A DNA stretch of 64,000 nt from assembly GCA_963667665.2 (NCBI GenBank), contig OY763927.2:768001-832000 (forward strand). Direction: 5' to 3'. Both the position numbers and the translations under genes were made by a program. The notes below the pieces were generated by a model. The model saw only the letters and a program-made list of their open reading frames with translations. It was not told the origin of the DNA and did not search any database. The DNA comes from Nitrosopumilus sp. (lineage in GTDB: Archaea; Thermoproteota; Nitrososphaeria; Nitrososphaerales; Nitrosopumilaceae). Positions within the stretch are counted from its first letter, which is position 1; every line of letters starts with the position of its first letter. Of this stretch, positions 34,914 through 55,563 are shown piece after piece.

Positions 34914-34922
34914 TACATCTTT

Positions 34923-35066: not shown

Positions 35067-35215
35067 TTATTAACTAATTGATTTTGTTTTAATCAATACA
35101 ATCTAATTGCATTCAATATAATTTTCACAATTCTATAATGTTATTCTATCACATGATAAAGTAGGATAAAGTAATAGAGAATATATAGTTGAATATTATC
35201 GTGTTTAATAATAAC

Positions 35216-35683
35216 ATGAAAAATGTAAAAACACTTGTATTTGCAATGCTCATTCTTAGCATAGTTATTCCAATAACTGGCTATAGTTTGGCAGAAGCAG
35301 ACGCAACAAACGAAGTGCTTGAAAACATACGAGAATTAAAAGAACAAGCCAAAGAACAAGCTAATAGTCTGACAGCTCCAGAAGATATTGATGTGAATCA
35401 AAAATATTTGGAGCGATTGACACTTGCAGAGGAATTAATCACCTTGCAAATCAATGACGAAGGCGATAGTGAAAAAGCAAGAGAACTGGAACAGAAACTA
35501 ATTTCTGAATTGGAAAAACTCCCAAAAACAGAAATGCGTTATGATGACGTTCCTGCTGAAATTGGTCCAGGAGATACAAATGATGTTGAAGAATATGATA
35601 GAATTTATGGGCCTAAAGCTCATGCTACATCAACTAATTATGATACTTCAAATGTATTGAGAACTGACTGTAGTTCATCATCA
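35216..35683 (+). pseudogene. Secreted protein (MKNVKTLVFA...IP family) interrupted by IS630
   Basis: ORF runs into the IS terminal repeat. Confidence 0.7.
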
Positions 35684-37212: not shown

Positions 37213-37386
37213 GGCCATAGGGCATTTATTGCAGGCAAGCATGGTGCTGTAATTCACATGATAGATCATAAAACAGGCCAAATAGTGAAAAAGGCTTTTG
37301 CCAAAGGTGCTGTTGTAAATGTAATTGGTGGTGTAGTTAGTTTTCTTGAACATCAAGTGTTAGGTGGACTGTTGAGCGAATTATAA
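37213..37386 (+). pseudogene. Small paralogue 1 (5' end cut by IS)
   Basis: FIAGKHGA...D.KTG..V.KAF.KG. Confidence 0.7.
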
Positions 37387-37622
37387 TGCCTCTAGTTCCT
37401 GGAAGAATAACATCAGTTGATTCAAACTGGTTAGATGTTGGTCATCCTGGCAGTCCTGTATTTATTGCAAAAAACCATGGTGCAAGGGCATCCATAATAG
37501 ATGAAAGAACTGGTGAGAGAGTAGTCAAGGCTTTCAAAAAAGGTGGTGTACTAGGGGCAATAGGAGGAGTGGTCAGGTTTGCAGAAAATGATATCGTTAA
37601 GGCACTGGAGAATTTACTATAA
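37386..37622 (+). CDS. Small paralogue 2
   Basis: FIAKNHGA...DERTG..VKAFKKGG; TAATG coupling. Confidence 0.75.
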   Translation: MPLVPGRITSVDSNWLDVGHPGSPVFIAKNHGARASIIDERTGERVVKAFKKGGVLGAIGGVVRFAENDIVKALENLL

Positions 37623-37921
37623 TGGCCACATCAATTAATGGTAATGTAGTGTACAAAAGTCCAGGGGAGTGGATAACTAATGGTCATGTACATACAGTTA
37701 CCAGACATGGTGCAGTAATGAAGGCAGTAGATAAAAACACAGGCAAAGTCCATACACATAATTTTAACTCTGGCGGTTCCTTTGTACAGCTGCAAGATAT
37801 AATATCGTTTTTCAAAAAAGATGTGGTTCCAGAAGTAGAAACTCTTGCAGAAGATATTGTACCAGTTGTAGAGGAGGCATTACCAGTAATAGAAGAATTG
37901 GCTCCACTAATTGCGTTATAG
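37622..37921 (+). CDS. Small paralogue 3 with acidic amphipathic tail
   Basis: RHGA...DKNTG..H.F.SGG; TAATG coupling. Confidence 0.75.
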   Translation: MATSINGNVVYKSPGEWITNGHVHTVTRHGAVMKAVDKNTGKVHTHNFNSGGSFVQLQDIISFFKKDVVPEVETLAEDIVPVVEEALPVIEELAPLIAL

Positions 37922-38047
37922 TCTAGTTTTCTTTTTCTAATTATAATAACTGATATTTCTTTTTCTATATTTCCAAACTACAATTGACGTTATAATTATT
38001 ACAGATATAATTAGGATTAAAAGTGGTACTACCACATATGCAGAATC

Positions 38048-38620
38048 TCACCAAATTTCACATTTTTGTGTTTCTTGACTAAATTTATGAGTTGTAATTG
38101 GGCAATCTAATCCAAACTGAGGAGAAGTAATTTCTTTATCTGATTCATAAGATTCAGGATTTTTTGAAATGCATTTAAAAATTTCCGAACCCTTCTGACA
38201 TACAGGTGGATTAAACTCTGGACTAATCTTAAAGGATTCATCAAATGTGGAAATAGAGTCACCTTTTTGATAATCAAAGGATATCTGTACTTTTATTCCA
38301 GGAGGTAACGAATCTCTTGTACTTATTGATGGGTAAATTAACAAAGTATCTTTGATGGCATAATCATCATACAAATCCCAATTATTTACAAATTCTTTGG
38401 CCGTGTGTATGGTATAGTTAAGCCAGTTTAGATCGTATCCTAATTTGTCAATATCATTTTCATTCAAATTCAAATCAATTACGGCCCTACAGAAAAAAAT
38501 ATCTGGATTAATTTCTGATAATTTTTCTTCATATCCATTAAAATCAGCATAACATGAGTCAATCCATTGATTTGATTTGTTTCCTTGAAGTACAAATAAC
38601 ATTAAAAATAATTCAAACAT
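38048..38620 (-). CDS. Hypothetical protein, Cys-containing, N-terminal hydrophobic stretch
   Basis: ORF. Confidence 0.55.
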   Translation of the reverse strand: MFELFLMLFVLQGNKSNQWIDSCYADFNGYEEKLSEINPDIFFCRAVIDLNLNENDIDKLGYDLNWLNYTIHTAKEFVNNWDLYDDYAIKDTLLIYPSISTRDSLPPGIKVQISFDYQKGDSISTFDESFKISPEFNPPVCQKGSEIFKCISKNPESYESDKEITSPQFGLDCPITTHKFSQETQKCEIW

Positions 38621-38629
38621 AAAAAAAAA

Positions 38630-38908
38630 TTATGGAATAATTTCAGGACGTTTAATCACTGCACTCCAATGATTTGTTTTTGATTCTTCCTCCATTTGTT
38701 TAATTAAATTTTGAATTGCTTTTACAGTTTCATTTTCTTCATCAAGTTTGAATTCTCCTTTTATTCTTGTCTTAAATCTGACTTTTCCATCAGGTCCTTT
38801 TTGAAGAACTAAATTTAAGTTAGCAATTCCACCAGGTATTTTTTGATTTGTTTCAGAAGCACTTTTTCTCATGTTTTTTGTTCTGAGCCATTCAATAAGA
38901 TTCATCAT
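38630..38908 (-). CDS. Hypothetical protein
   Basis: ORF. Confidence 0.5.
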   Translation of the reverse strand: MMNLIEWLRTKNMRKSASETNQKIPGGIANLNLVLQKGPDGKVRFKTRIKGEFKLDEENETVKAIQNLIKQMEEESKTNHWSAVIKRPEIIP

Positions 38909-38985
38909 TATTTCACTACTAATTTCATATTTAAATTCATAAGAAAAAAAAGATTAGGATATGGAATATAGTACCATATCATAAC

Positions 38986-39777
38986 TTACTTTACCATTTT
39001 GTTCGGAAAACCACCAGGAACTGATGTGAAACCTTTAGTTTTCCATGAAGTTGAGGCATCATTGATAATTACATTGTTTTGATAAACAATTGTATCACCA
39101 CCTGCATCTGTTGTTTCATAGTCTACTTCAAATGTGGCACCCGTTGCACCCCCATGAGCCAAATAATCCACAAATGGATAAATGGTTTGAGAGTAATCAT
39201 CCAGTACTACTGTATCACTACCACCTAATGTTTTAGAGTAGGATATATGATCACTACTTCCAAACACAGTATGTTTCCATAGTCCCCAATGTGTATAGTA
39301 CACATAACCACCAACAAAATCTACGTGTTTACCACTGCAAGAACAGGCATATGTAATTCCTGTATCAGGATTATACATAACACTTGTTGTAGATACTGTT
39401 TCGGTAACTTCAGAAGGATTTGTATCCCAAATAGGAATACCTGTTTCAATAGTATTTTCTAATTGGTCAAAAGTCATGTATCCTCTTGCATTAAGTTTGC
39501 CTAAATCAAGTGCTCTATCTATTTCTGCATTGTTTTTAGATTCTCTTGTTGCTTCAGATTTATCATTCTTCTGTTTGAGTTCTTTTACTTTGGTGTCTTT
39601 TTCATGATATTCCTTTGCTAAGTCATAATCATTGCTAAATATTGCTTGGAGTTGCTCCTTACTTTTTTCAGAACTTGCTCCAAAAGCTTCGGTATTCATT
39701 CCACTAAATGGAAGAATCATTGCAACAATTAATCCAACAAACAATATTGTCTGTGTCTTTTTTGATATATTTTTCAT
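38986..39777 (-). CDS. Secreted protein (KTILF..LIVAMILPFS family)
   Basis: Signal peptide, helical region and beta-rich C-terminal domain. Confidence 0.75.
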   Translation of the reverse strand: MKNISKKTQTILFVGLIVAMILPFSGMNTEAFGASSEKSKEQLQAIFSNDYDLAKEYHEKDTKVKELKQKNDKSEATRESKNNAEIDRALDLGKLNARGYMTFDQLENTIETGIPIWDTNPSEVTETVSTTSVMYNPDTGITYACSCSGKHVDFVGGYVYYTHWGLWKHTVFGSSDHISYSKTLGGSDTVVLDDYSQTIYPFVDYLAHGGATGATFEVDYETTDAGGDTIVYQNNVIINDASTSWKTKGFTSVPGGFPNKMVK

Positions 39778-39805
39778 GTTATTATTAAACACAATAATAT
39801 TCCAC

Positions 39806-41334
39806 TATAGCAATGCGCATAAGTTTCTGTACAGCCAATTTCTGGGCATCGTCGTCCCTTGATCATCACATCTTTGTAAATCATCGTCTCCTGCATTCCG
39901 AACAGCATCTGTATACCTTCAACGTATTTTTTTCACACAAATTTGTAAACTAGAACTATCTTGGCATTTCACACGAACGTCAATTTAACCGTACTGTTAC
40001 TAAATAGGAAAAGTCAAAAATTTGTTTCACTAAATGTACACATGCATGGACATAAAATGCTAAAACAAGTGCAAAAAGTAGAACATGTAGGCTGTATATC
40101 ACGTCGGTTATCCATGCTGTTGGCATTTATGGTAATCAAAACATTTGTCAATACTGCCAAAATATCTTGTTGTGATCGTCGTACTGTTGCCATGTAACAT
40201 TACAGGTTTGCATGTGCTGCAAAATCATTTCATGGAATATGGCAGGCCCTCTCAGACAAACCACGGTCAGGACGTCCACCCAAGATAGACAGAAAAATTC
40301 TAAACAAAGCAAGGCATTGGTGCGAGGAACGCGCATTTACACCCGTAGAACTGCACGACACTAGAAGAGATGTCTGGAAAAAACCTTGGCATCTCGCAGA
40401 TAAGGCGATATGCCAGACAGTGGGGATACTCTAGAAAAAAGACACAGCCAATCATGGTTAGTAGAACACCAATAGAAGAGGTGAACAAATGGAGGGCCAG
40501 CCTGTATCAAAAGATTGCAAGATACACAAAGATGCGATATACAATTGTAACACAAGATGAATCACACTTTAAGGACGCTGCAATGTCTGCAAAATATTGG
40601 GCAAAACTGTGCCTACGCATATTCATGTTATGGAGCGGAGGATTTCATAGATTCTCAATGATATGCAGCATGACACAAGACGGCAGACAGTTTTTTAATC
40701 ACTGTCAGACTGTCAATACCGCTTCCTTTCTAGAACATATGGACAAGGTGTACATGGAGGTAGGCAAGATGGTCCTGATACTAGACAAGGCACCGTGGCA
40801 TATATCCCAGGAGACGAAAAGATTCTTTGCAGAGCGCGACATTATTGTCCTGTGGTATCCTATCGGACATCCATATCTGAATCCCGTAGAGGAAGTATGG
40901 AGCGTACTCAAACGTGTAATGAATCATTCCATACGTTATGCAGACAAGGATGCACATCTGGCAGCAGTGTATGAATTTATCAGGGTACACAAGTTTGATT
41001 ATAATTTTAAGAAATTCTGGAAGAGAAAACCGCCCAAAGGAATCATGCGGCCATTCATAAAGATGGATGATCCGCCAAATCCCGACATTGTATCACACCA
41101 GGTATCGTCTAAACCTGCACAAAAACAATGATTGTACGAATAGTTTGATCTTCTGTATGTATCATGTTGGTGCCTGCATTTTTTTCCAATGTGATATGTA
41201 TAGCCATACATGAATCTGAATTTTAATTTTCCATGCATTTTGTTTTGTGCTTTTGGTGTATTCCCCAGACAAGAGGCATTATGCCTATGATGGTCCTAAA
41301 ATATCATGTACAGAAACTTATGCGCATTGCTATA
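39806..41334 (+). mobile_element. IS630-family element, copy 2 (inverted, near-identical to copy 1)
   Basis: Same TIRs and length; only a few substitutions. Confidence 0.95.
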
Positions 41335-41432
41335 TATCAAAAAAATTATGTGCATCAGCTTGTAAAATTATGCGCAAAAAACTTGTTTGAGGGTACATTT
41401 TCAACTTCTGACATGTATAGGACGAGTTTTAG

Positions 41433-42956
41433 CTACTCTACATCATCTAATGAGGGTATTTCTGCCGTAAGGGATTCGGACTCTATATAATATCCGGATC
41501 CGAATATGTACCCGTCATGCAATACAAACAGCGACCATTTTATCTGCTCTGTTCCGGTTGTAGGATTTTCAAACGTGTATTTTACCCACGTATGGCCTTC
41601 AAGAAGATCCGAACGGATTACATCAAACGGCCTATCCAGTTCTACAATGGATGTGCTTAAAACATTTACAAGTTCGGGATTTGATCCATGGGCCACAATA
41701 ACACCGGTGTCATAATCAAGAACAAACGGGTATGACGGGTCAGTAGCCATCATTGAGGTAATCTGTTCAAAGGCATTATCAGGATCAGAGTCGTAAAGTG
41801 CAATGATGCCATCTACAACGCCCATTACAATAGATTCCGGTGTGAGATCAACATCTGTTGGCGTTGATATCATATCATACCAGCCTGTGATCTTTTCCTG
41901 TGGAATCTGATCCAATGTCTTTTGCATAATGGAGCCCAGGATTGGAAGATCGTTTCTGTATCCTACGGTAAGATCGTACTGGTGCCCCGTAGAGCCGGCA
42001 TTGTATATGCTCTCAACTCCAGATAGTTTTGAGTAATGGACTACGCTAGGCCACGTGCTTGCAAATGCGTTAGCACCGCCTGCCTGAAGAACCTCAAAGA
42101 CCTCTGACTGGCTGTCCACTGAGACGTACTGCGTGTCAGGATGGTTCTCATCAAGCCAGGACTCTATGGCATAGCCTCTGATTGTAACCAGTACAAGACC
42201 GTCATCATCAATATTTAACGGAGCATCATTCAGAGATGCCATGTATGTCTTCAGGGAATAATGTGAGGATGTAAAGCTCATGTATTCCAGCCTTTCAGGT
42301 GCAGAGGCCACTATGAACATGATGTCAGATTCTCTGTCCTTGATTGTCTTTAACGTCTCAGCCCAGGTCTCCACTATTGGACCCTGTACCAGATCTGCAC
42401 CTGAGATGGCCTCAAACTCTGCAATGTAGTCCAGTGTGACGCCCTGAAGGACGCCTGAGCCATCAAGATACTCTATTGGTACCAGCCCAGGGTCATAAGA
42501 GACACGTATGGCGGGATTGTTTTCCAGCCATTCGATCTCTTCAGATGAGAATATGTCTGCTGGCAAGAAGAATGCAGGTGCAAGTTCTATACCTCTGCTC
42601 TGCATAACATCGTATGTCTCAGCATAGAGACAGACAGGCGTTTGGGATTGGCGGATATAGAGTTCTCGTGGTTCGTTGCATTGGATATCGTTTATTGCTG
42701 TGCCGCTTTCAAGCTGTTTTGCAGGTGGCAGATAAACCTTAGATTTCATGTGTTGGTCTGATTGGGCATGTGCGGCATTTACAAGATTTAAAGCAAGATA
42801 GCCATCAGTATCTTCTGTCAAATACGCGTCTGAGACAGACGATCCCATGCTAGGAAATATGATTGCCGCACTGAGAACAAGCAGGCTACCAAGAGTAAGA
42901 AAGGAACCGTGTTTAATCATGCAACATCTCCGTTTGAGCATATGGGTAAAGATCAT
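41433..42956 (-). CDS. Secreted family-3 solute-binding protein fused to a single Cache domain
   Basis: EEIEWL..NP.IRV, ERLEYM.FT; YPFVLD...AHG, WVKY.F.NP.TG, FGSGYY. Confidence 0.8.
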   Translation of the reverse strand: MIFTHMLKRRCCMIKHGSFLTLGSLLVLSAAIIFPSMGSSVSDAYLTEDTDGYLALNLVNAAHAQSDQHMKSKVYLPPAKQLESGTAINDIQCNEPRELYIRQSQTPVCLYAETYDVMQSRGIELAPAFFLPADIFSSEEIEWLENNPAIRVSYDPGLVPIEYLDGSGVLQGVTLDYIAEFEAISGADLVQGPIVETWAETLKTIKDRESDIMFIVASAPERLEYMSFTSSHYSLKTYMASLNDAPLNIDDDGLVLVTIRGYAIESWLDENHPDTQYVSVDSQSEVFEVLQAGGANAFASTWPSVVHYSKLSGVESIYNAGSTGHQYDLTVGYRNDLPILGSIMQKTLDQIPQEKITGWYDMISTPTDVDLTPESIVMGVVDGIIALYDSDPDNAFEQITSMMATDPSYPFVLDYDTGVIVAHGSNPELVNVLSTSIVELDRPFDVIRSDLLEGHTWVKYTFENPTTGTEQIKWSLFVLHDGYIFGSGYYIESESLTAEIPSLDDVE

Positions 42957-43075
42957 AATGACGTATCTGTACGCTACTAAAAAATGCCATTATTCAGTGT
43001 TAAATATTCATGTATATTAAGATTTTTAAAATGTCAATAGATTGTGGTATATGAAAAGTAGTTCCCCCTCCCACC

Positions 43076-43562
43076 TTATTTGACATGATATTCCTCCCCT
43101 GTTTGCTTGTCAACTACGGTTTCTCCTCTAGGCGGCATCTTACGTATGAACGCATGTGCCGGAGTCTCGTTCTCCCCGTCTACACCAAGAGACATGTGCG
43201 GTCTCCTGTGGTTGTACCATTCCATAAACAGATCCACGGGATCACTCTTGCGCATCATGATTGCCTCAAACTCTGGCAGCTTACGCTGAATCTCGCCGTG
43301 CAGCCTCTCCAGCTTGCCGTTGGTTTGTGGATGTCTGACGCCTGCCAGGATCTGTTTTATTCCAAGCTCGACCAGCCTTTTCTCAAAGACCGATGCCCCC
43401 TTCTTCTTTGCCTCTGAGGCGTTGGCGTAGAACTGGGATCCTCTGTCAGTCATTATGGATGCAGGCTTACCGTGGTTTTTTATGGCCTCCTCAAGCACGG
43501 CCAACGCGTTTTCGGTAGTGGCGTGCTCAAACATGCTGTACCCGGTGACAAAACGTGATGCG
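43076..43562 (-). mobile_element. IS481-family (rve) transposase, 3' remnant
   Basis: ASRF, TDRGSQF, PQTNGKLER and YN.RRPH.SL motifs. Confidence 0.85.
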
Positions 43563-44982
43563 TAGTACCGGCCAGTAAGATCCGCTCACTTTGGCCGTCT
43601 GCGGCATCACGTCCGTCCAAACCGAAAGATTTTGATCGATCCTCCCATAACAAATACACATGAGGGCCTCAAACGGACGTGGATGGAGCAGGCCCGGTAC
43701 CCTGCCGACGGGCAATGATTTCCTGCCCGATACAGACGCACAGATCCTTCTGGAGATGATTGCAGCCTGCCCACCGGGGAAGGTAAGGGACATCCTGAGA
43801 GCATGCTACGAGAGGAAGATCAACGCGAGCATACGCAGGATATGGGATCTGCTGATGCGGCCGTACTCTACCGTGCGGGAGTGGCTTTGGAGGGTGCACG
43901 AGCGCGGACTGGACAACATATCTGACAGAAAGCCGCCGGGCGCAAGGGGCATACTGGGACCGGAGGAGATCGAGATTGTCAGGGAGACACTGCGCCAGCC
44001 ACCGACCGAACACGGATTCGAGCAAGGGGCATGGCTCCTGCGCATGATCGCAGAGGTCATCACAAAAAAGCTGAAAAAACATTGCAGGCCACGTACCATA
44101 CGGAGGCTCCTGCGTAGGATGGGATTCTCGTACGTAAAGCCTAGAACCGTTCCGCACAAGTCCGCCTCCAAAATGGAGCAGGAAGAGTTTATGCAGCAGT
44201 GCAAACAGCTGGTCAGTGAAAAGTCAGCAGAGGATTACACAATGCTGGCACAGGACGAGGCAGGCGTGCGGTTGGGAGCCTGCGGCGGGTACGGCTGGCG
44301 GTTCAAAGCCGACGGGTGCGAGGTCGGCGTCGGATTCTCCACCAAGGAGACAAGAATCATCGGAGCAGTTGGCCCTGACGCAGTCCACGTAAAGGTGGTT
44401 GAGAGCGTAAACGCCGACACCTTCATAGAGTTTCTCAAGGAAATGCGGCAGATATACAAAAAATTCGTCATGTTCCTTGACAATCTTTCTGCGCACAAGG
44501 CTGTCAAGGTGTCAGAGTACGTCGAGTCCGCTGGAGGAGACATTGTTTTGATGTACCTGCCCAAGTACACCCCGCAGCTTAACCCCATGGAGATCCAGTG
44601 GAATGTGCTCAAGAACATGCTTGCCCAGCGATGCTTTAAGAATGCCGAGGAACTTGCCAAGTCAATCCGGATTCTGGTAGATACCGGACAGCTCTTGCCG
44701 GTCAAGCAGATGGATTACATGATTCCGTAATCAGGATTTTTTGCACCGGCGTTCAAGATTATTTTTATGCACGTCAGTTGCCCACGCATTTTTTCACGCC
44801 GCACCTGATTCATGCGCGTCAGTTCCGCATGTTACTTGGATTTACACGACAGTTGCTCGCAGTCTCGTGCCTGCAACGCAGACAAAAGACATCAACTCCA
44901 CCTCACTTGGATTTGCACGACAGTTGCCAGGCCCAAAGTCAAGGACGCGTAAAAAGTGAGCGGATCTTACTGGCCGGTACTA
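43563..44982 (+). mobile_element. IS630-family element with intact-looking transposase
   Basis: 30-bp TIR tagtaccggccagtaagatccgctcacttt including TA ends. Confidence 0.95.
43660..44730 (+). CDS. IS630 transposase
   Basis: QDE, LDNLSAH and YTPQLNPME motifs; N-terminal HTH. Confidence 0.92.
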   Translation: MRASNGRGWSRPGTLPTGNDFLPDTDAQILLEMIAACPPGKVRDILRACYERKINASIRRIWDLLMRPYSTVREWLWRVHERGLDNISDRKPPGARGILGPEEIEIVRETLRQPPTEHGFEQGAWLLRMIAEVITKKLKKHCRPRTIRRLLRRMGFSYVKPRTVPHKSASKMEQEEFMQQCKQLVSEKSAEDYTMLAQDEAGVRLGACGGYGWRFKADGCEVGVGFSTKETRIIGAVGPDAVHVKVVESVNADTFIEFLKEMRQIYKKFVMFLDNLSAHKAVKVSEYVESAGGDIVLMYLPKYTPQLNPMEIQWNVLKNMLAQRCFKNAEELAKSIRILVDTGQLLPVKQMDYMIP

Positions 44983-45078
44983 TGCATCTTCCGATCAATT
45001 AAAAACAATCCGCACCGGATTCGGAGTTGTGCAACTAACATGATTCTCGTATACTTGGCTAATGATCATGTGTTATTA

Positions 45079-46791
45079 TTAAACAACTAGTATTCCTTGT
45101 TGGATCAAAAACTGGATGCTTTGGATAAAGGTGGTATCATCTATTATGCCGTCTGCCCACCATTTGGCACTGGTCTTAACCCAGCTTGGAATTGTACCTG
45201 ACTCTGATTCGGATTCTTGGTCGGTACTGCTAACGTCTGTCTCAGAAATCTTGATAATGTCATTTTGAATCAAAAACTGGATGCTTTGGATAAAGGTGGT
45301 ATCATCTATTATGCCGTCTGCCCACCATTTGGCGTTGTTTTTAATCCAGCTGGGAATTGATGTCGTTTCAGGTACGGATGCTGTCAAGCCGGAACCTATG
45401 TCTAAGAATACCGTACCAATCCCTGCATATTTTTGGTCATAGTCAAGTCCAACCCCGTAAACTAGGACGTCGATTCTGACAATACCCTGGGATGGGATGT
45501 AGATATCTTGGACATCCAGTCCCTCAATGGCTACAATTCCGGGAGTCGCCGTATCATCATAGCCTCCGCGTGCCAATTCTTGTCGGGATTCGTCATAAGC
45601 AACATAGGCGTATCTTATATCCGGAATTAGTGTCTTATTTTCATTAAAGAATGCAAACTCAAACGGTATCTCCTGATCGGCGCTGTATGTGCTGTCGTAT
45701 GAAACAGATACGTCGGTTGGAACCCGTCGTTCCACGTCTTCAAGGCCGACAAGATAAAAATCGCCAGATATCGCCTCAATCTCAGGTGACGGAACTATTT
45801 TCAGATTCATTACTTTGTTTGAATAGTTGTCCGGACCAAGCAAGTCATTGATCTTTTTTAACGTCTTGTCTGTGATAAGGAAATGAAGGATGTTTGTATT
45901 GTCAATAGAATACGGATCAGATATCAATCCCCTTTGATCAAGCTCTATGCTGTTTACATAGCCTGTAAACTGTTTGCCTGGGACGTATGGCTCAAACGAG
46001 TCCGGAATCCTAACCTCCTCATGTACCAGCGGAACCAAGCTGATGTAGTCTGGATCCCAGTCAAACGGCATCTCAAAGCTGATTGAATTGTCAGACGCGT
46101 CAAATTCAAAGCTTTCAATATCATCATAGTACGTCTTGACAACTACTGGAACCTCCGCACTGGCAGTCTGAATCAGGAAATCCTGATTTTTTACAATACT
46201 GACAAATGTATCGTAGCTGAGTCTTTCAGACAGCAAGATCTTTGGACTGGTGGCACCTTCAACATCTATGCGAATGTTATACAGTCCGCCTTGAACAAAC
46301 ACCGGACCGGTGATTGTAGGCCTTCCACAGACATCTAGGTTTTCATCAGTGCACGCTACGCCTTGCACATAGAGTGTACCTGGCGCATCGGGGTGTTCAG
46401 AACCGCCGTAAATAGTGCATCGCCATAGCTCATTTTCATTACAGTTAGATGAAGGGCGTATCTCTACATCCAGTCTGCCATCGTCGTCATAAAAGAGACT
46501 TCTTGCAAGCAGTTCCTCACTTTTCCAGATTTCAACTCTATATGTTACCTGATCCAAGGTCAAGTCCGTGTCGACATCAAAAAATCTTATCTTCATGTTC
46601 ACCTCATCAATATCTCCCAGCGTAAGGTCGTAAGGAGTCAAGTCAGTGCGAACCGTAACGTTCATGTCTCCAAAGGATAGCGGTTCGGCCTGATCTCCGC
46701 CCGGACTGTGTGCAAATGCGTTGGGAAGAGCGGCAGCAGAGGCTGCGAGAATGCTTACGGCAACAAGAAATAATGTTAGTCTGTTATACAA
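45079..46791 (-). CDS. Secreted thaumarchaeal protein with duplicated IP.W.K..A.WWADG C-terminal module
   Basis: Signal peptide; FEMPFDW, HEEV..P and two tail modules. Confidence 0.8.
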
Positions 46792-47198
46792 TATAACATT
46801 TTGGTTAATTCCGTATTTAAAGCTGATTTCAGTTTTAGCGTCTGGTTAAATACATGTAAAAATATCCTCGTCGTAGTCCAAGTGATGGATCAACCTCTGT
46901 AACTGTACTTCGCGTACTTTATCTTGAATGGGGCAATAACCCGGGCTGATGCGTTCCTGTGCTTCGCGCACTGTAGGTCCGAAGTTGACCGCAAGAAAAT
47001 TTTGTCATATGCAGGAAACCAAAAGCAATAAGGTGCAGATAAAGTGACACCAGACAGGCCTGAAAAACCAAGATTTGGACAACGCCCCTAGAGACAAAAA
47101 ACCTAAAACTTATACAGTAGGACATCTTGAAAAATCAAAAGATTAGGAGAGCCAAAACATAAACTGTATACAAGGAGTTTCATACAAAATAAAAATCA

Positions 47199-50100
47199 TC
47201 AAGGTGCATACACAGTCACTGTGACTATCTTCTCTACCAACCAGTCATAATCTGATGCTGCAAACCTGAAAGTCAAAACAGTCGTTCCTGATTCCACAAT
47301 CGGTGCCCTGTCGGTGCGAGTAAACGTGTCGCCGTCATTGAAACTGTCAATAGAGGTTGTTGACATGCCATCGGTCTGAGACCACCACGCGTTTGCGTCT
47401 TCATCGCTGTCATTCAATGTACCAGATAACGTAAAAGTTGAATTGGAAGCCACACTGATTGAAGACTGATCTACGTTCACGACTGGTTTGTTGTTGTTAG
47501 TTATGTCGATTCGGAACGCGACCACGTCTGTAAGTGCACCGTCCGTAACTTCGAGAATCATGTATACCGTGTTTTCAAATCTATTGTCACCGACCACAGG
47601 TGCAATGAAAGATACACGCTCACCACTTCCTAATATCAACACTTCAGGACCAAAATCGGCTATCCATTCATATGATAGATCATCGTTGTCAGGATCATAT
47701 GATCTGGACGCATCTAGAACGACTCGATCGCCTGCTACTACAAACAGGTGTTTTTCAAGCACGACTACAGGTGATTGGTTTTCACGCACGCTGACAGTTA
47801 TTGTATCGGAATTAGTTCCACCTTCATTGTCCATCACTACGAGTTTTATCACAATTGTCTGTGTACCGCTAACATTTGGAGCTATAAAATACGGAGTCGA
47901 TGTACGATCGTCATAAATGAACACGTTTGGACCGCTTTCGTGGCTCCATTGGTATGACAACTCAGTGTTGTCTGGATCATCTGCAAATCCTCTCAGGTCA
48001 ACTTTTTCACCCGATTTTACATGTTTATCTGCGCCCGCTCCAACACTCGGTGCGTCGTTACCATCTACAGTCACTGTAATTGTGTCCGAGTCACTATATG
48101 CACCGTTAGTAACTGTTAGTTTAAACGTTAAAACCGCATCATTATCTGGTGACACGAACCCAGCAATCGAAGAATCAATATCTTCAATCTCTACTGTATC
48201 ACCTCTAGTCTGCGTCCACAAGTAATCTGTGTATCCAGCTCCCTCTGTCGATCCACTACCATCTAACCTCACATATGTGCCTGACTTTACAGTCTGGTCA
48301 ACGCTAGCATCAGCAGTCGGCTCTAAAAATACGACAGTCACGCTCACGCTGTCTGTGCCGACGTTGCCGTCACCGTCTGTTACAGTTAGCTCAAAGATCA
48401 GCACTTCTTGCATGACGTTAGGCGACCTAAATGATGGTGTGGATCCTAACATGCCTGAGAGACTTACATCTGTCCCGCTCGTCTGCGTCCATAAATACCT
48501 TAATGTGTTACTGTCAGGATCATATGAGGATCCGCCATCTAGGTTAACTATGACTCCAGGCTCTACGCTCTGATTGGATCCTGCATCTGCCACTGGAAGT
48601 GTTGATTCCACCGTGATGTCTATTGAATCACTCCCAGCCTGTCCTGTAGAGTCAACGACTGTTAGCATAAATGTCAGCGTGCCTATAAGATTGGGTGCTG
48701 TAAACGACGCAGAGGCTTTGTCGGAATTCGTCAAAATCACGTCGTGTCCACCAGTCTGCGTCCATGAATATGATATTTTATCGTTGTCAGGATCGGATCC
48801 ACTACCTAATAGATTCACAGTCTCTCTTGGCCTGACAGTCATATCAGTTCCGGCATCTGCGGAAGGCGGATCGTTACTGTTATCTATAATGGTTATTTTA
48901 ACGCTATCATTATTAGTGTTATTACCGGAACTGACGGCTAGATTAAATATTAGAACGGATGGCGTTGAGGGAGTCATGAACGTAGGTGAGGCGATGCTAC
49001 TGTTGGAAAGGGTTATCGATGGACCGCTAGTCTTCGTCCATGAATATAAAAGCCCTGTACCTACGGATGATTCGCCGTCGAGATGCACCGTACCATCAAC
49101 GTATGCTGTCTGATCGTGTCCGGCATCTGCCACTACGCTTGGAACTTGAGACTCATTATCCAACACGCTCACCATCATTCTGTCCGTGGCAGAATTGCCT
49201 CCTGGATCCATAACTGTAAATATAAATGAAAGTTCACTCGACATGCTTGGAGTAATAAAGGACGCTACAGAAGAATCAGGATTACTCAAAGTCACGTCGT
49301 GTCCGCCAGTCTGCATCCATGAATATGACAATGCACGGCTTTCTGGATCGCTACCAGATCCTCTTAAAATAACATATGAATTCACGAATGCGTTGATGTT
49401 ATATCCAGCGTCCGCTGTTGGTGGAGCGTCATGCCCAACTGTGATGCGTATACGATCACTGTCAAATACACCTGTAGAATCCATCACTGTAAGCATAAAA
49501 CCCAACATAATTTGACTAGATGTGTCTGGAGCTATAAATGACGGCATTGCCGTATTTGAATCACTTAACGTAACATGCGTGCCTGTGGACTGTTGCCAGT
49601 CATAAGACAGACCATTTCCGACGGAGCCTGTACCATCAAGTGTCACATTTGCACCGCCATCGACACGCATGTTACTACCAGCGTCCGCTGTCGGCTTTAT
49701 GCTTTGTAGCACCACGTGGACATTTACTTCATCTTTATCCAACGTCGGGTATGCTTCTACCGTCAGACTGAACGAAAGAGTCTTGGTGACGTTTGTGGTG
49801 GCAGGTGCCGTAAACGTAGCAACTGCCTCTGTACTGTTAACCAAATTCACCGTCTCGCCTACAGTCTGTGTCCATAAATAAACAAGATCGCCTCCAGCAG
49901 GATTAACAGATGCACTCCCATTCAGTATCACTGTTGTGCCTGGTCTTACCTCAATGTCGCGTCCGGCATCCGCCACTGGGTAGAATATGCCATCGATTGC
50001 TATGACCAGCCTTACCTTGTCAGAATTCCCAATAGTGTCGCTTACACTCAGTTCAAATTCAAGCAGGGAGGCGTATGAGCCAATTTCTGTTTTGAAAGTC

Positions 50101-51542
50101 GCGGCTGGTTCGTAGGCGTTGTTCAACTGTACATCTACACCGCTAATTTGCCTCCATTCATATGTCAAACCGTCCAGACCTGTCGAACTGCTACCATTGA
50201 GTACGAACACTACTCCGCGAGGTGCTGCATAATCTGCACCGTCTGGCATGAATCCTGTTGTATACACATTTTCGTCTTCTTTGGCTACGTGGCCGAACGC
50301 GTACGCGTGTGGAGGGGAACCTTTGTGGAAGTAAACAGATACAGTATCTACATTGGTAAATATACCGTCAAATACTGATAATTGAAATTTTGCAAACCGA
50401 TCTATATCATTCATGACAACTGGAACTATAAATGATGCCGTTGGGGATCTGGCGTTGGAGATAATGACCGTTTCGCCCTCTGTCTGCGTCCATTTATATG
50501 TAAGGCGGTCGTTGTCACGATCTGTAGTGCGAGAACCATTCAATATAACAATCTCGCCTGCCTCTACATCAACCACAGGTAATATTCTGGCATTCGGTGG
50601 CGAATTCTCCACCACTCTTACAGACACTGAATCTGTGGCATCGTACTGAGTGTCATTCACAATCAGTCTGAATTCAAGATCGCTGGCAGATGCCGGTGCA
50701 CTGAACTCGATACTTCTTGAGTTGTTAAAATTAACCATGATGCCAGAGACCTGTTCCCACAAATATGACAAACTGCCATCGCGGTCGCTTGAACCTCTGG
50801 CATCCAACGTCACACTGGTGCCATTAGTTACTATCTGGTCTAAACCGGCATCAGCCGTTGGGCTACTGTTTTGTACCGTGACTGATACAGTGTCTTCCCC
50901 CGTTAGAACGCCGTCCGTGGCACTGAGTTTGAACACCAGCACTTTTTCGCCTTTCGTGACTGTGGGGGTCGTAAATTCGAGAGAATATCCTGTTGTTTGA
51001 GTATACACAACAGTAGGTCCTGATACTTGTATCCATTCATGCGAAACATGGTCATTGTTAGGATCCAATATAATTCCCACTAGTGTAACTTTTTCGTTGC
51101 TAAGAGATATGATGTTGCTTCCAGCATCGACTCGCGGAGCACCGTTGCCAGGTATGGCTACAGTTAGTGTATCGCTGGCTACTATATAGGATCCGCCACC
51201 TTCTGCACGCCGTTCGAAATCACGTGCCTCTATCTTCCAAATTAGACTGTCACCAGCAGAAGCACCGTACATGTGATTCAAAAAATACGATGTATCGTCA
51301 CTGCTTATCTGTATTTCTGTGCTGGCTGATTTTAATATCAACGCGTAATACGTGACGTTATCTGTTTGTGAAACGTCATTCCAGCTAAATAGGATAGTAG
51401 TGCCACGGATCTCTGCATCGAGGTGTATAGACGCAGCGTATGCATCGTCTGTGTATACAAATATTACTCCTATTACTAATAGAAAAAATAGACCCGCTAA
51501 CTTTCCACAGGAGTTGTACTGGAGCATAACTTTTTGTTCCAT
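47199..51542 (-). CDS. Large surface protein with ~14 PKD/Ig-like repeats
   Basis: Repeated P.ADAG..Q.V....V.LDG..S....Y.W.Q..G units. Confidence 0.9.
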   Translation of the reverse strand: MEQKVMLQYNSCGKLAGLFFLLVIGVIFVYTDDAYAASIHLDAEIRGTTILFSWNDVSQTDNVTYYALILKSASTEIQISSDDTSYFLNHMYGASAGDSLIWKIEARDFERRAEGGGSYIVASDTLTVAIPGNGAPRVDAGSNIISLSNEKVTLVGIILDPNNDHVSHEWIQVSGPTVVYTQTTGYSLEFTTPTVTKGEKVLVFKLSATDGVLTGEDTVSVTVQNSSPTADAGLDQIVTNGTSVTLDARGSSDRDGSLSYLWEQVSGIMVNFNNSRSIEFSAPASASDLEFRLIVNDTQYDATDSVSVRVVENSPPNARILPVVDVEAGEIVILNGSRTTDRDNDRLTYKWTQTEGETVIISNARSPTASFIVPVVMNDIDRFAKFQLSVFDGIFTNVDTVSVYFHKGSPPHAYAFGHVAKEDENVYTTGFMPDGADYAAPRGVVFVLNGSSSTGLDGLTYEWRQISGVDVQLNNAYEPAATFKTEIGSYASLLEFELSVSDTIGNSDKVRLVIAIDGIFYPVADAGRDIEVRPGTTVILNGSASVNPAGGDLVYLWTQTVGETVNLVNSTEAVATFTAPATTNVTKTLSFSLTVEAYPTLDKDEVNVHVVLQSIKPTADAGSNMRVDGGANVTLDGTGSVGNGLSYDWQQSTGTHVTLSDSNTAMPSFIAPDTSSQIMLGFMLTVMDSTGVFDSDRIRITVGHDAPPTADAGYNINAFVNSYVILRGSGSDPESRALSYSWMQTGGHDVTLSNPDSSVASFITPSMSSELSFIFTVMDPGGNSATDRMMVSVLDNESQVPSVVADAGHDQTAYVDGTVHLDGESSVGTGLLYSWTKTSGPSITLSNSSIASPTFMTPSTPSVLIFNLAVSSGNNTNNDSVKITIIDNSNDPPSADAGTDMTVRPRETVNLLGSGSDPDNDKISYSWTQTGGHDVILTNSDKASASFTAPNLIGTLTFMLTVVDSTGQAGSDSIDITVESTLPVADAGSNQSVEPGVIVNLDGGSSYDPDSNTLRYLWTQTSGTDVSLSGMLGSTPSFRSPNVMQEVLIFELTVTDGDGNVGTDSVSVTVVFLEPTADASVDQTVKSGTYVRLDGSGSTEGAGYTDYLWTQTRGDTVEIEDIDSSIAGFVSPDNDAVLTFKLTVTNGAYSDSDTITVTVDGNDAPSVGAGADKHVKSGEKVDLRGFADDPDNTELSYQWSHESGPNVFIYDDRTSTPYFIAPNVSGTQTIVIKLVVMDNEGGTNSDTITVSVRENQSPVVVLEKHLFVVAGDRVVLDASRSYDPDNDDLSYEWIADFGPEVLILGSGERVSFIAPVVGDNRFENTVYMILEVTDGALTDVVAFRIDITNNNKPVVNVDQSSISVASNSTFTLSGTLNDSDEDANAWWSQTDGMSTTSIDSFNDGDTFTRTDRAPIVESGTTVLTFRFAASDYDWLVEKIVTVTVYAP

Positions 51543-51832
51543 ATAATAATATATGATTATTATACATAAAAGGCATTCGTCAATAATCCATCTTTTTCAG
51601 CTCATCCATACATCCGTCACACAAATGATTTCCACGAAACAATGTCATGTCCGCTTTTGGATTTGGCATCTTGCACGTACTGCATGCTGTCAAATCGGCC
51701 TTTACAATGCAACTGTTGCAGTACGGTTACCCGTCATCCCAATGCCCGCCGTCGGTGGCATCATTACCGCATATTACGCATGTTGTCATATGGTTATGAT
51801 GTATAAACGGTATAAGGGGTCAGGGTGTGCCC

Positions 51833-52171
51833 TCATATGCAGTCACTGCACAGACGTGTTGCATCTGCCAGTACGGACCTAAAATGACCGCATCTCCTGC
51901 AACTATCAAGTACGGTTTTTGGTTCAGACGACATACCATTGCTGACGTCTGTGTTGCCAGGCGGTCCGTCAAAACCGACAAACGGGGCATTCGGGTTCAT
52001 CCTACACCTGTCGCATTGAACATGTTCGCCATCTTTACTGCCACATCGTACGCACGCCCTGTCAATATATCGCCGTTCTTTCAGCTCCATACAGATTACA
52101 TGTTGGTCATGTGAACATAGTTCATGTTCTGCCAGACACGGTTTATTACAATACACGCAGTCAAAACTCAT
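51833..52171 (-). CDS. Cys-rich multi-zinc-finger protein
   Basis: Several CxxC pairs. Confidence 0.55.
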   Translation of the reverse strand: MSFDCVYCNKPCLAEHELCSHDQHVICMELKERRYIDRACVRCGSKDGEHVQCDRCRMNPNAPFVGFDGPPGNTDVSNGMSSEPKTVLDSCRRCGHFRSVLADATRLCSDCI

Positions 52172-52211
52172 AATTGATTTATGGTTGTTTTTTATTTAAA
52201 CAGGCTGTTTT

Positions 52212-52724
52212 TTACAAAGTCTGCATATCATTATGCCAGTCAGGTGTCGAACCGTGTCTGTCGGTGTCTGGCAGATCAGTATATTCAGAAAAATGTGTAC
52301 GTATTATGTTTAATATTTCCACAGAAGTGTGGGTTTCGAGTTCCTCGCGTATGCGTTCCAAATTATTTTTTGTTTTCTCTGGAAGCGCTTTGAATCTATC
52401 CTTGATGTAATTCATTCCGTTAAACGATATTATTACTGCAAAGTTATTGGAAGATTTTTTGCCTATTCCTACAAGGTGGTTTGAAAAAACCAGTTCGTCT
52501 ATCATTATTCCAACCTGTTTGCTGTATGGGCCACCACGATGTTTTTCGAAACGGACTGCGGGATATATGGTCATGTTCTCAAAGACAGTCTTTATTGCCA
52601 GAAATATCTCATTTTGCTGTCTTGTTCTGCCCTTAATTGGCTTGCGTCTGGCATAGAATATCAGTAAGATTACATCCTTTGGTGTACAAGTTTGGTTTGA
52701 CCTGGATCTTGCAGACGGGTTCAA
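52212..52724 (-). CDS. YwgA/Panacea(DUF4065)-like winged-helix protein
   Basis: I.GRTR.Q..IFL...F....GPYS..V pattern. Confidence 0.6.
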   Translation of the reverse strand: MNPSARSRSNQTCTPKDVILLIFYARRKPIKGRTRQQNEIFLAIKTVFENMTIYPAVRFEKHRGGPYSKQVGIMIDELVFSNHLVGIGKKSSNNFAVIISFNGMNYIKDRFKALPEKTKNNLERIREELETHTSVEILNIIRTHFSEYTDLPDTDRHGSTPDWHNDMQTL

Positions 52725-53134
52725 AGGCGACCTCTTTCAAGCTTCCTTTTCAAAAACTCAGCCTGTTTATAATACAGCAGATTAAGATCAACTATTGACA
52801 TGTTATAATTCTGACCCGCTGCGACATCAAGTATTGCATTTTCAACGACACTGTCAAATGGCATGCTTGCCTCTACGTAAAATTCCCCCATGTTTCCTAT
52901 TCGCACTACACCTAACGACAAAAGATAGTACACCTGGTTCATGCCACCACAGTCAATTCCAATGGATTTTACAATGTTCTCTGCAACAGTACTGTGATCT
53001 GGCTCAATAAAATATACCGATCCGTTTGGGAAAACAAATCCAAACTCGTCAGTACCAGTCCGGGCATATTTTTTCATCTCTGTCTCTATTTTTGTGAGCA
53101 ATTTCCTGTTGGGTTTTTGTACACTGGCGATCAA
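52721..53134 (-). CDS. Hypothetical protein, paralogue of 53136..53588
   Basis: FGFVFPNG.VY...HS.VAE...IDCG...LG.VRIG. Confidence 0.7.
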   Translation of the reverse strand: MIASVQKPNRKLLTKIETEMKKYARTGTDEFGFVFPNGSVYFIEPDHSTVAENIVKSIGIDCGGMNQVYYLLSLGVVRIGNMGEFYVEASMPFDSVVENAILDVAAGQNYNMSIVDLNLLYYKQAEFLKRKLERGRL

Positions 53135-53135
53135 A

Positions 53136-53588
53136 TCAGCAGTCAGTCATCCCTTTTTCAAGCTTTCTTTTTAGAGACTCACCGTGCCTCCAGCTCCACA
53201 TATCAACTAGGACCAGTTTGTATCTGCAACCGACAGCAGTATCAAGTATCGCATTTTCGGCTGTTCTGCCAAGAGGTGTGTGTGACTCAACGTAGAACGC
53301 CCCCTGCATAAATCCGATTCTTACTATGCCCAGTTTCATAAAATAATGTAAAGGTTGTAGATCACCGCAGTCTATTTTGAGTACCCGTATGATCTTTTCT
53401 GCCACAAACGAGTGATAGTTTTCAACATGGTACACGGCACCGTTTGGAAAGACAAATCCGAACACATTGTATTTTTTGTCCGCATATTTCCTTTTCATGA
53501 TTTTCTCGATTTTTGCAATCAATGTTGTATTTTTTGGTACATGTGTGTTACGCATAATGATTATGCCGTCAGAATTACGTGTAGTCAT
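53136..53588 (-). CDS. Hypothetical protein, paralogue of 52721..53134
   Basis: Same motifs. Confidence 0.7.
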   Translation of the reverse strand: MTTRNSDGIIIMRNTHVPKNTTLIAKIEKIMKRKYADKKYNVFGFVFPNGAVYHVENYHSFVAEKIIRVLKIDCGDLQPLHYFMKLGIVRIGFMQGAFYVESHTPLGRTAENAILDTAVGCRYKLVLVDMWSWRHGESLKRKLEKGMTDC

Positions 53589-53806
53589 GATGTCCTCTCA
53601 AAGATTAATTTGGACTCGCCAATAGTGTAATCATCAAACTCGTCTATATTGTAGAAACCCGGCTTGAAATAAATATCAGGAAACTCATTATAGACTCTAA
53701 CAATTACTGGACTGAGTATAGTAATAGCATCTGATATACCTTTTACAGTATGAACTATTATTATTTCTGGTTCTGTGAAGTTATCGAGACCTAGGTTATG
53801 GATCTT
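53585..53806 (-). pseudogene. 5'-truncated first gene of the operon
   Basis: Open frame ...VYNEFPDIYFKPGFY...ERTS*, overlapping the next start (ATGA). Confidence 0.4.
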
Positions 53807-53824
53807 CTAAGGGTTAAAATTTGA

Positions 53825-54595
53825 TTATCTAATTGTAAATGATTCTGAATACAAATATCTGTCAGAGTGACTTCCAATTGGAGATGATTGATGCGTGTAA
53901 CTGATTTTATGAACACCAGCTGTAAAATCACCTGTTATTTCAAAACTACCCGTAAATACACCATCATGTATGTTGCATTCTGTTCTTTTATCGATAGTAT
54001 GATGATAGTATTTGCCAAACTCAATAGGAGTTTCATAATCTCTCCAATTGTTAATTTCTACGGGATACTGTGTTTCATCATAAGGATAGTATCCCATACA
54101 CCCACCAAGTCCATCTATAGTTTTTCTTTCATTTTCTGGCGTTATTATTATAATATTGATATTTTCCTGAGAGGGATAAATCACAGTTCCGTTTATCAGT
54201 TGTTTTGTAAGTGCGCCCATCAATTTCCCTGTCACATAAACAGTATCACCTAAACTGTAATCTTGCTTATCCGTAGTAATATATGGTAATTCTACATTCT
54301 GATGTTTTATTTCTTGTTGTGGTTGAGTAATATCATCTGTTTGAATAACACTCTTTTCTTCTTCAAGATGTTCTATTTCTTGTTTCAATTCAAACACTTC
54401 TTTTTCTAAGTTATGGATATTTTTCTCATAAATTTGGAATTTATTTTCTACCCATTTCTTGTATTTTTCCATGTAATCTTTGTATGATTCAAGATAGTCT
54501 TTCCATTCTTGTAACATATCACGTTCGGCATAGGCATCACTTGTTGCAGGAATGAAGAATAAAATCAGTAATGGGATAACTATTTTTTTATTCAA
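53825..54595 (-). CDS. Secreted protein with coiled coil and Ig-like domain
   Basis: Signal peptide; TDKQDY.LGD.V.VTG motif. Confidence 0.65.
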   Translation of the reverse strand: MNKKIVIPLLILFFIPATSDAYAERDMLQEWKDYLESYKDYMEKYKKWVENKFQIYEKNIHNLEKEVFELKQEIEHLEEEKSVIQTDDITQPQQEIKHQNVELPYITTDKQDYSLGDTVYVTGKLMGALTKQLINGTVIYPSQENINIIIITPENERKTIDGLGGCMGYYPYDETQYPVEINNWRDYETPIEFGKYYHHTIDKRTECNIHDGVFTGSFEITGDFTAGVHKISYTHQSSPIGSHSDRYLYSESFTIR

Positions 54596-54599
54596 TTCA

Positions 54600-54836
54600 T
54601 CAAGAGTCTATAATATCCAAATAGATTATATCATCAGAACGAGAATACATTGCTTTGTAGTCCTTATTGCTTCCCATTATAGTTCCTTGTGCATTCATGA
54701 CTTCTTCTCCTGTTGCATTAACATCTAAAAATTTCAACCATACACGATTAAAACAAAGCATAAAATGTTCTTGACTTGAAGATCCTAATTCGTGAAATTT
54801 AGAGCTGAAATCTTTTGGCTTTTCTAGATTAACCAT
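54600..54836 (-). CDS. Hypothetical protein
   Basis: ORF. Confidence 0.5.
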   Translation of the reverse strand: MVNLEKPKDFSSKFHELGSSSQEHFMLCFNRVWLKFLDVNATGEEVMNAQGTIMGSNKDYKAMYSRSDDIIYLDIIDS

Positions 54837-54898
54837 CTCTGAGTTCGGCTACAAAATCTTTAAAACAATTTGACTTTGTAGTATCCCCTAGTGTTTTT

Positions 54899-55306
54899 TT
54901 GAAAGCTTCTAATTCTTCTTTTGTGCTGGATTCAAATATTTCTCACATAGATAGCCCATTTTTTCCCAATCGAAATTTACTCCTTCTTACAATTGCTGCA
55001 TCATATGCATATCAAAATTCCATAAACATTGTTTCTATAGGATTATTAGATAATATGATTTTTCCAGACCAAAATAAGGAGTTTGTAAGTAATGCTGAAA
55101 AAACCATATCAATAAGTCTTGGACAAGAAATTAAAATTCTCACACCGTTAATTGAATTAGATAAAAGAGAAGTGGTGGGTTTAGCAAAAAAACATAAAAT
55201 TCCATTAGAATTTACTTATTCTTGTTACTCAGGAAAATCACTACCATGTGGCAACTGTAAAGCATGTGTAGAAAGAAAGTTAGCTATGAATGAACCAGTT
55301 TTATAA
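54899..55306 (+). pseudogene. QueC-family gene, C-terminal half only
   Basis: PNRN, FPDQ, TYSCY and CGNCKAC motifs; SGGxDS loop absent. Confidence 0.85.
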
Positions 55307-55341
55307 AAAAATTCTATATACTTTGTATTTAGATAAATAAT

Positions 55342-55563
55342 ATGGGAGCATCAGGAAGTTTTCATTATGATCCAAATTCAAATTCATCAGAAAAGAAATT
55401 TGATTCAGCTACATCAGATGCTGAAAGATTTTCTGATCGCCCATCAGGAACAAGAAATGTTTTCATTAGTTTTCATGTTGAAGACGAATCACAAGTGAGA
55501 TTTTTTACAACAATTGAGATAGTTCTAGATCTTGTCACACTACAAATCTTAAACAATGATTAA
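55342..55563 (+). pseudogene. TIR-like (MTH538/ThsB-type) gene, 3' truncated
   Basis: RNVFISFH.ED...V first strand and helix, then similarity is lost near 55505. Confidence 0.65.

Follow-up and report, generated by a model that had tools for sequence, protein, structure and literature searches.

The window, the whole stretch of 64,000 nucleotides analysed here (Nitrosopumilus sp., contig OY763927.2, positions 768,001 to 832,000), carries what is left of an operon of five genes (TGT, OGG, QueC, ThsB-type TIR and 8xMP protein), which related archaea possess in intact form. The operon probably encodes a Thoeris-type defence against viruses, and a 7-deazaguanine is predicted to be attached to Gly2 of its TIR; we give this reading a probability of about three in four. 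The copy in the window is a doubly truncated remnant of 580 bp and is likely dead.

A truncated queC–TIR pair at the edge of a genomic island

The queC part lies in a plus-strand ORF (54899-55306; 135 aa from a TTG) that carries FPNRN, FPDQ, TYSCY and CGNCKAC. Pfam QueC covers it over model positions 86-207 of 210 (the last 60%, E 1.5e-31), in agreement with the preliminary description, which had recognised a QueC C-terminal half from PNRN, FPDQ, TYSCY and CxxCxxC, and the PADLOC QueC model PDLC00911 matches the same ORF (E 6e-22). The fragment retains PxRN, FPDQ and the Zn-binding cysteines; the loss of residues 1-80 has removed the ATP loop (SGGxDS) and a portion of the cleft on which the partner docks. 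A full-length protein, P0123, contains the same 125 residues, and a natural full-length QueC, P0002, is 99.2% identical to the fragment.

A second ORF (55342-55563) begins 35 bp past the queC stop and reads MGASGSFHY...RNVFISFHVED, as had been observed before together with its TIR-like RNVFISFH strand. Taken alone, this ORF had no Pfam or PADLOC match. Over 58 aa it shares 81% identity with an intact ThsB_TIR protein from a relative (G291), which bears out its earlier reading as a TIR protein. Its first ~56 codons correspond to a ThsB-type TIR start and its last ~17 codons to foreign DNA in frame, such that the TIR stops at about residue 56 and Glu114, invariant in 31 intact homologues, is missing. 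We take Glu114 to be the catalytic glutamate of these TIRs. The MGASGS start is not a chance feature, since only 2 of the 2685 ORFs of at least 70 aa in the same genome, the relic TIR included, start with MG[GAS][GAST][GAST]. By analogy with CdnD, Gly2 of this tail is the predicted deazaguanylation site. Within the tail, contigs from all four metagenome runs carry 6 extra bases after 55372 relative to the window (coordinates of the features in Table 1).

Table 1. Features of the remnant and its surroundings, in window coordinates
Feature	Position	Strand	Remarks
Island of ~37 kb replacing a 126-aa gene	18731..55500	.	The relic is its right end
Foreign in-frame lead to the queC fragment	54899..54928	+	TTG and 9 codons; only lengthens the apparent ORF
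cap9-like queC, 3' part	54929..55306	+	Codons 81-205 of a 205-aa gene; last 125 codons
thsB-like TIR gene, 5' third	55342..55510	+	Gly/Ser tail, helix, first beta strand
Gly/Ser-rich tail MGASGSFHYDPNSN	55342..55383	+	From the sequence and its conservation across homologues
Tail helix, residues 15-31	55384..55434	+	From the co-fold; predicted docking on the QueC cleft
TIR beta-1 strand RNVFISFH	55453..55476	+	R40 and V42-F46 unchanged in all 31 homologues aligned
Right breakpoint, 10-base overlap TTTTTTACAA	55501..55510	.	Present both in the native gene and in the TIR gene of intact operons
Native 126-aa gene, first ~12 codons (VTRSRTISIVVK)	55501..55538	-	Conserved gene

The pair had been placed at the edge of an island, and it does terminate an insert of ~37 kb (about 18730-55500). 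In six relatives the genes flanking the island (window positions 17753-18603 and 55604-55780) are adjacent, with one 126-aa gene where the window has the insert. Native DNA stops at 18730 on the left; on the right, the TIR ORF closes within the opposite strand of the native gene's start. The remainder of this native gene was not found in the window's own genome (G000). The island cargo includes a ParB-domain gene (18785-19708), an Eco57I-type methylase ORF (30347-32338), DDE transposases and a 1447-aa PKD-repeat protein (47199-51542). A 426-aa ORF without a Pfam match (32673-33953) contains HGFRKYF, presumably an integrase-like motif. GC content reaches 0.40-0.53 at 40-53 kb vs about 0.31 elsewhere in the window. 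Closer to the relic, three small minus-strand ORFs occupy 52212-53588, two of them paralogues with a common FGFVFPNG and one with a weak PADLOC DarG match (E 9e-5), and a minus-strand coding-like remnant with interrupted frames (54600-54928) lies at the left joint. A tRNA-Ser(CGA) gene (60744-60827) lies 5 kb right of the island, away from its edge.

Intact five-gene operons in relatives

The TIR start was matched in seven of 300 other genomes of the family, and all seven (7/7) carry five genes in the order TGT (Cap10-like), OGG (Cap11-like), QueC (Cap9-like), ThsB-type TIR and 8xMP membrane protein, with families assigned by Pfam and PADLOC in two of the seven. The products measure 326-347 aa (TGT), 241-245 aa (Ogg-HhH glycosylase), 197-209 aa (QueC), 161-164 aa (TIR) and 167-175 aa (8xMP, PF24838), and the TIRs of the intact relatives match PF08937 with E-values of 1e-16 to 2e-17. 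The suggestion that the relic points to intact systems elsewhere is thus borne out. Beyond the QueC-TIR pair, which was all that the window could show, the intact module also has a TGT, an OGG and an effector gene. At the genus level the TIR profile matches 11 of 150 genomes, among which G195, G244, G291 and G706 have the five genes. Beside the operon of G291 (L009), a class III nucleotide cyclase gene with weak PycC matches (11414-12589) is divergently oriented, and a NurA gene lies on the other side.

A GTDB scan with the TIR alignment returned 61 loci, six of them identical to loci of the family search; as these were gathered by TIR-alignment patterns, the set is biased to the relic's clade and holds many kin. 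QueC is present in 55/61 loci and TGT, OGG and QueC together in 53/61 (profiles from five operons), showing that the synteny of QueC and TIR is conserved. An 8xMP gene occurs in 24/61, adjacent to the TIR in all of L016-L039 (archaea and one Brocadia); the other 37 loci are bacterial and without 8xMP. In the one annotated bacterial example (L089), the effector gene after the TIR is instead a SLATT gene. Many proteobacterial loci have no obvious effector directly after the TIR. In archaea and bacteria alike, the TIR starts ~70 bp or less past the upstream stop and the order is fixed. The archaeal effector is matched by 8xMP only in Pfam and by no NCBIfam model. The Cap10-like gene is longer in bacteria (L040-L076), and in L089 (3912-5312) the TGT begins with a TIR_2 domain. 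Further genes for ThsB without a tail, SLATT and TPR-S are found near the bacterial loci.

Layouts other than the five-gene operon also exist. G322 (L143:2440-4675) has TGT-QueC-TIR with no OGG or 8xMP match, and a Heimdallarchaeote (L032:3133-6522) has 8xMP-TIR-QueC-TGT-TIR with no OGG. G110 (L141:7281-8543) and G714 (L142:6336-7284) have a tail-less TIR(-TIR)-8xMP unit, and about 7 kb of its surroundings contain no helper operon; from their gene content, TIR and 8xMP look like a Thoeris core of their own. Searches of viral contigs confirmed no relatives of the TIR start (0 of 27 pattern matches) and none of 8xMP (0 of 6).

Breakpoints and reality of the truncation

Between 54928 and 55508 the DNA aligns to the G291 operon at 85% identity, and the alignment has sharp ends. 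On the left the breakpoint falls at 54928/54929: the G291 alignment begins at 54928, and contigs of the metagenomic samples X3 and X9 branch off at or before 54929 into an intact queC. On the right, TIR-type contigs match through 55510-55512 and native-type contigs from 55501, which suggests a deletion at a 10-base microhomology. The left flank (54590-54935) gave just 26-46-base matches at chance level in 3/250 family genomes, and X3 and X9 contigs have 3 extra bases at 54700 relative to the window.

The stretch is present in sponge metagenomes among others, and the relic's ends and open frames are identical in sponge-metagenome assemblies from three studies, which confirms that both genes are cut, queC at its 5' end and the TIR gene at its 3' end, as had been proposed. 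X3 and X9 also contain contigs of lower depth that diverge at 54929 and at 55510/55512 into intact queC and TIR sequence, and the left-diverging intact contig encodes residues found in P0002. Given these branching contigs and the identity to P0123, the loss appears recent, with intact queC and TIR start co-occurring in the X3 and X9 samples. In G000 (99.97% complete), tblastn at E 0.01 detected no OGG, no 8xMP and no operon-type TGT; the sole TGT match is 24% identical and located elsewhere. Because G000 is without the helpers, a whole TIR and the effector, the pair is a remnant and not a working member of the system. In one RNA run, 0.05 of the stretch's words were present.

The simplest reading of this history is an island insertion followed by deletions: the operon would have arrived on the 37-kb island and been reduced recently, on the right at the 10-base microhomology. 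The 580-bp piece may also have been captured from a co-resident strain. That the truncation is instead an assembly chimera, joining a co-resident strain's operon to the host chromosome, would suit the cut and intact forms branching at identical places in X3 and X9, but has next to no chance of being correct: X12 has a single 12.6-kb contig across the whole relic stretch (4 runs, three studies), X3 contigs bridge both joints and X9 contigs the right one, and truncated products of 127 aa and shorter are recorded on several other contigs. Nor is it at all probable that the relic has been retained for a function, for example with its 73-aa tail peptide occupying the helper enzymes of an incoming element, whether as decoy or as substrate. 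Both the tail and the docking helix are complete and the model docks them, and the same ends and open frames recur in three studies, although near-identity to the intact parent leaves too little time for decay and so makes the open frames uninformative. The upstream operon and promoter are gone, no Cap9 or Cap10 partner was found in the genome, and promoter sites number 3 against 7.8 expected (a sigma-70 scan, of little value in archaea).

Classification of the QueC and TGT proteins

In two QueC trees (46 and 34 rows) the window fragment falls beside G291, within a single TIR-linked branch (support 98/95 and 97/92). In the 34-row tree, 20 TIR-linked QueC proteins group together, apart from 11 housekeeping-type and 3 CBASS Cap9 proteins. 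Near-copies were thinned, the long-branched L032 was omitted from the second tree, and QatC was outside both; CBASS Cap9 contributed 2 and 3 rows. Since the trees are unrooted, a shared origin of the two defence QueC groups is not read from them. The QueC is therefore of the defence type that had been suspected, separate from the housekeeping proteins, including the copy of its own genome.

At the position of the canonical YPDC, or YxDC in Cap9, TIR-linked QueC proteins read FPDQ or similar. They depart in this from the Cap9 signature H(x)4YxDCxxxF (~185 aa) given in the accessible text of PMC13329287. Their catalytic residues are conserved. The best PDB sequence match of the intact QueC is Cap9 (9nto, E 5e-16), narrowly ahead of QueC, and that of the intact TGT is Cap10 (9ntn, E 4e-5), narrowly ahead of archaeosine TGT. 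Cap10 H226 and D248 correspond to conserved residues of the operon TGTs, and the nucleobase-reading DSG is conserved in 9/9 aligned TGTs. Archaeal operon TGTs keep a C-terminal CxCxxC Zn motif that is absent from CBASS Cap10, and the PADLOC Cap10 model (E 1e-12) matched only G195 among 401 genomes of the phylum. Against TIGR00364 the QueC scores 143 bits (cut-off 150), and the TGT has weak DpdA and archaeosine-TGT matches.

The preliminary description found no other que genes. This is true around the locus but not of the genome, which has a housekeeping-type queC beside folE (C1:1503038-1503673) and a queE match (C1:1.503-1.505 Mb); queD was not found in G000 with one query. The substrate CDG is likely available, given the housekeeping queC and the queE match. 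A separate housekeeping queC is present in 5/5 genomes.

The glycine tail and its predicted docking on QueC

Taking the last ATG before the first beta strand as the start, a rule that is blind to sequence, residue 2 of the 55 QueC-linked TIRs is Gly in 45, Ser in 2 and another residue in 3; of the five without an ATG, four read V/L followed by a Gly-rich tail and one has no in-frame start. The first start codon after the upstream stop gives Gly2 in 37/55, several of its picks falling a few codons before MGG. Gly2 and the neighbourhood are hence both conserved among TIR homologues, as the proposal of a tagged TIR had foreseen. The tail is absent from 18 second-TIR matches in the same loci, 12 of which start MGLPRT directly at beta-1. 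The TIR tree is weakly resolved, with QueC-linked, QueC-less and plain TIRs interleaved.

Tail and QueC are not strictly coupled, since four archaeal TIR + 8xMP loci (L028, L030, L037, L039) have an MGGG tail and no QueC within 6 kb. Three of the four genomes, which are incomplete MAGs, gave only housekeeping-like QueC. These loci are possibly a variant of the system. Each has an upstream ORF of 270-327 aa (L028:5148-5960, L030:3351-4244, L037:3455-4438, L039:4897-5874; similar to L012:3312-4202) with no Pfam match. It weakly resembles TGT (35% probability by hhalign, E 4e-4), and the leads from Atlas are DUF4417 for 55% of members and DpdA for 17%, at score 0.86. A CARF-like gene lies divergently upstream in L030 and L039. 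The genome with L039 (G675, Methanosarcina hadiensis) also contains L122, which has the type IV CBASS layout with a Cap9-like protein of 191 aa, a Cap10-like protein of 326 aa and a CD-NTase-like ORF starting MGGSGGG; it is possible that the L039 TIR is tagged in trans by this Cap9. The profiles of the TIR tails and of 3 CD-NTase tails align in 20 Gly-rich columns only (E 1e-4, probability 53%) and point to no shared ancestry beyond their composition.

We modelled full-length P0002 with residues 2-56 of the window TIR, ATP and Zn. The co-fold scored 0.87, the best of 3 controls scoring 0.00; the mark applied is reached by 116/157 solved and 2/215 mismatched pairs, counts that apply to this case only approximately. 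At least 72% of contacts recur between runs, and the partner pLDDT is at least 59. The predicted TIR interface comprises residues 15-17, 19-20, 23-24, 26-28 and 30-31, and QueC interface residues 26 and 114 correspond by alignment to Cap9 M29 and L104, which lie in its CdnD-binding cleft. A triple mutant in this cleft abolishes defence, according to the available text of 10.1101/2025.04.06.647259. The pass may reflect likeness, because the Cap9-CdnD complex has already been solved. Of the N-terminal peptide, the helix of residues 15-31 is predicted to dock on QueC, but the confident contacts exclude residues 2-14, and Gly2 is not confidently placed in the active site. With the co-fold and the analogy to Cap9 and CdnD, the earlier proposal that the TIR is the substrate seems likely.

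Proposed mechanism and alternatives

We infer that the system works like the priming of type IV CBASS, applied to a Thoeris TIR. By analogy with type IV CBASS, Met1 would be removed, and QueC would dock the tail helix, adenylate host-made CDG and join it to Gly2 of the TIR. The TGT-like protein might then bind the tagged tail and hold or transfer the TIR, and the OGG-like protein might reset it. On infection, if the Thoeris model applies, the TIR would make an ADP-ribose-derived signal from NAD+, and this signal would open an 8xMP membrane oligomer and stop the cell.

The operon could be antiviral and act in another way, the TIR draining NAD+ directly or serving only as a scaffold, or the tail binding QueC or TGT without a covalent tag. 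The Gly-tailed TIR + 8xMP loci without QueC, the low confidence with which the model places Gly2 in the active site and the proteobacterial loci lacking an obvious effector right after the TIR would all fit, as would the QatC reaction being called unresolved in the available text of PMC13279940. We consider this unlikely nonetheless: 8xMP lies beside the TIR in 24/24 loci (L016-L039), the two-part layout of signalling Thoeris, the QueC catalytic residues and the DSG of the TGT are conserved, and the tail fits the CdnD acceptor M(G/S)G(G/S)GG. More improbable still is that QueC and TGT act with the glycosylase to modify nucleic acids, making preQ0 and inserting it into DNA or tRNA in a Dpd-like manner, with TIR-8xMP a mere defence-island neighbour. 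The near-threshold TIGR00364 score, the weak DpdA and archaeosine-TGT matches and the Zn motif of the archaeal TGTs point that way; against it stand the fixed order and close spacing across archaea and bacteria, the separate housekeeping queC kept in every genome compared, the FPDQ that replaces YPDC in a separate QueC clade, and the occurrence of the tail mainly where helpers are present.

A wider hypothesis extends the preferred reading of a deazaguanine-tagged Thoeris TIR, and we offer it tentatively, with the odds somewhat against it. Archaea (ammonia oxidisers, Bathyarchaeia, Thermoplasmata and Asgard) would have a separate branch of Thoeris primed by deazaguanylation, with 8xMP as a pore effector not described before and with a new signal; the Gly tail and helix (about 35 aa) would be a transferable tag through which TIRs and CD-NTases come under Cap9/Cap10 control or leave it; and in some archaea a version without QueC but with a divergent TGT-like gene would receive its tag in trans, from a Cap9 encoded at another locus. 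If deazaguanylation of the TIR is real, this modification would serve as a switch for immune enzymes in general, and the TIR, with 160 aa, would provide a small second substrate for the question of Cap10's transfer target. The archaeal 8xMP branch offers compact five-gene operons, to which this locus serves as a pointer, and the occurrence of truncated beside intact forms in individual sponge metagenomes suggests that a symbiont is losing a defence operon.

Comparison with known systems

The relic's enzyme shares with housekeeping QueC the fold family, PxRN and the Zn motif; it differs in lacking YPDC and any queD/E linkage and in occupying a separate branch. Identity with housekeeping QueC was rejected on FPDQ, the separate clade and the genome's own housekeeping copy elsewhere. 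QatABCD likewise combines a QueC-family enzyme with a partner requiring Gly2 (QatB, MGTS; PMC13279940 and PMC13376578, as far as their available text goes), but the present QueC has about 200 aa against about 400 for QatC, and the operon has no QatA or QatD. Identity with QatC was also dismissed (NF041925 19.5 bits vs a cut-off of 280; the operon genes belong to other families). Type VII Thoeris (ThsB + SLATT ThsH, cADPR) is resembled by a Neorhizobium helper-TIR operon with SLATT after the TIR, whereas the relic's archaeal branch has 8xMP and no SLATT.

In type IV CBASS, Cap9 attaches 7-amido-7-deazaguanine to the CD-NTase at Gly2, the tail so modified is bound by Cap10, and defence requires both proteins, according to the accessible text of Wassarman et al. 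(10.1101/2025.04.06.647259). The present operons appear, from their sequences, to share the same three helper families, a Gly2 tail followed by a docking helix, and conserved catalytic residues. They differ in that a ThsB TIR replaces the CD-NTase and the QueC (195-223 aa) belongs to a separate FPDQ clade: true type IV CBASS loci (L090, L108, L122) have a CD-NTase after queC, where the relic's relatives have ThsB_TIR. We rejected identity with type IV CBASS on the lack of a CD-NTase (SMODS) as signalling enzyme and of the Cap9 signature.

The closest counterpart is Thoeris with cap9/10/11. The preliminary description did not recognise the combination of QueC and TIR as described; such operons are already reported, in silico only, in the available part of Yirmiya et al. 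(10.64898/2025.12.03.692087, Fig. 6G, S10B), where the predicted binding of the TIR to Cap9 resembles that of the CD-NTase, the modelled example being from a Pseudomonadales bacterium. The accessible text of that preprint does not contain 8xMP, PF24838 or RipA, which its figures and supplements may include, and 10.64898/2025.12.08.692795 makes no mention of QueC or Cap9. The literature searched, covering few subscription papers, contained no experiment on any TIR version and nothing relevant on 8xMP, PF24838 or RipA as a defence effector. As in cap9/10/11 Thoeris, the intact relatives have a TIR, an effector and cap9, cap10 and cap11; unlike it, the window has a two-gene remnant, and the effector of the archaeal relatives is the PF24838 8xMP. 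The additions made here are modest: a branch in archaea whose effector is 8xMP, an intact parent that is nearly identical to the relic, and the anatomy of the breakpoints.
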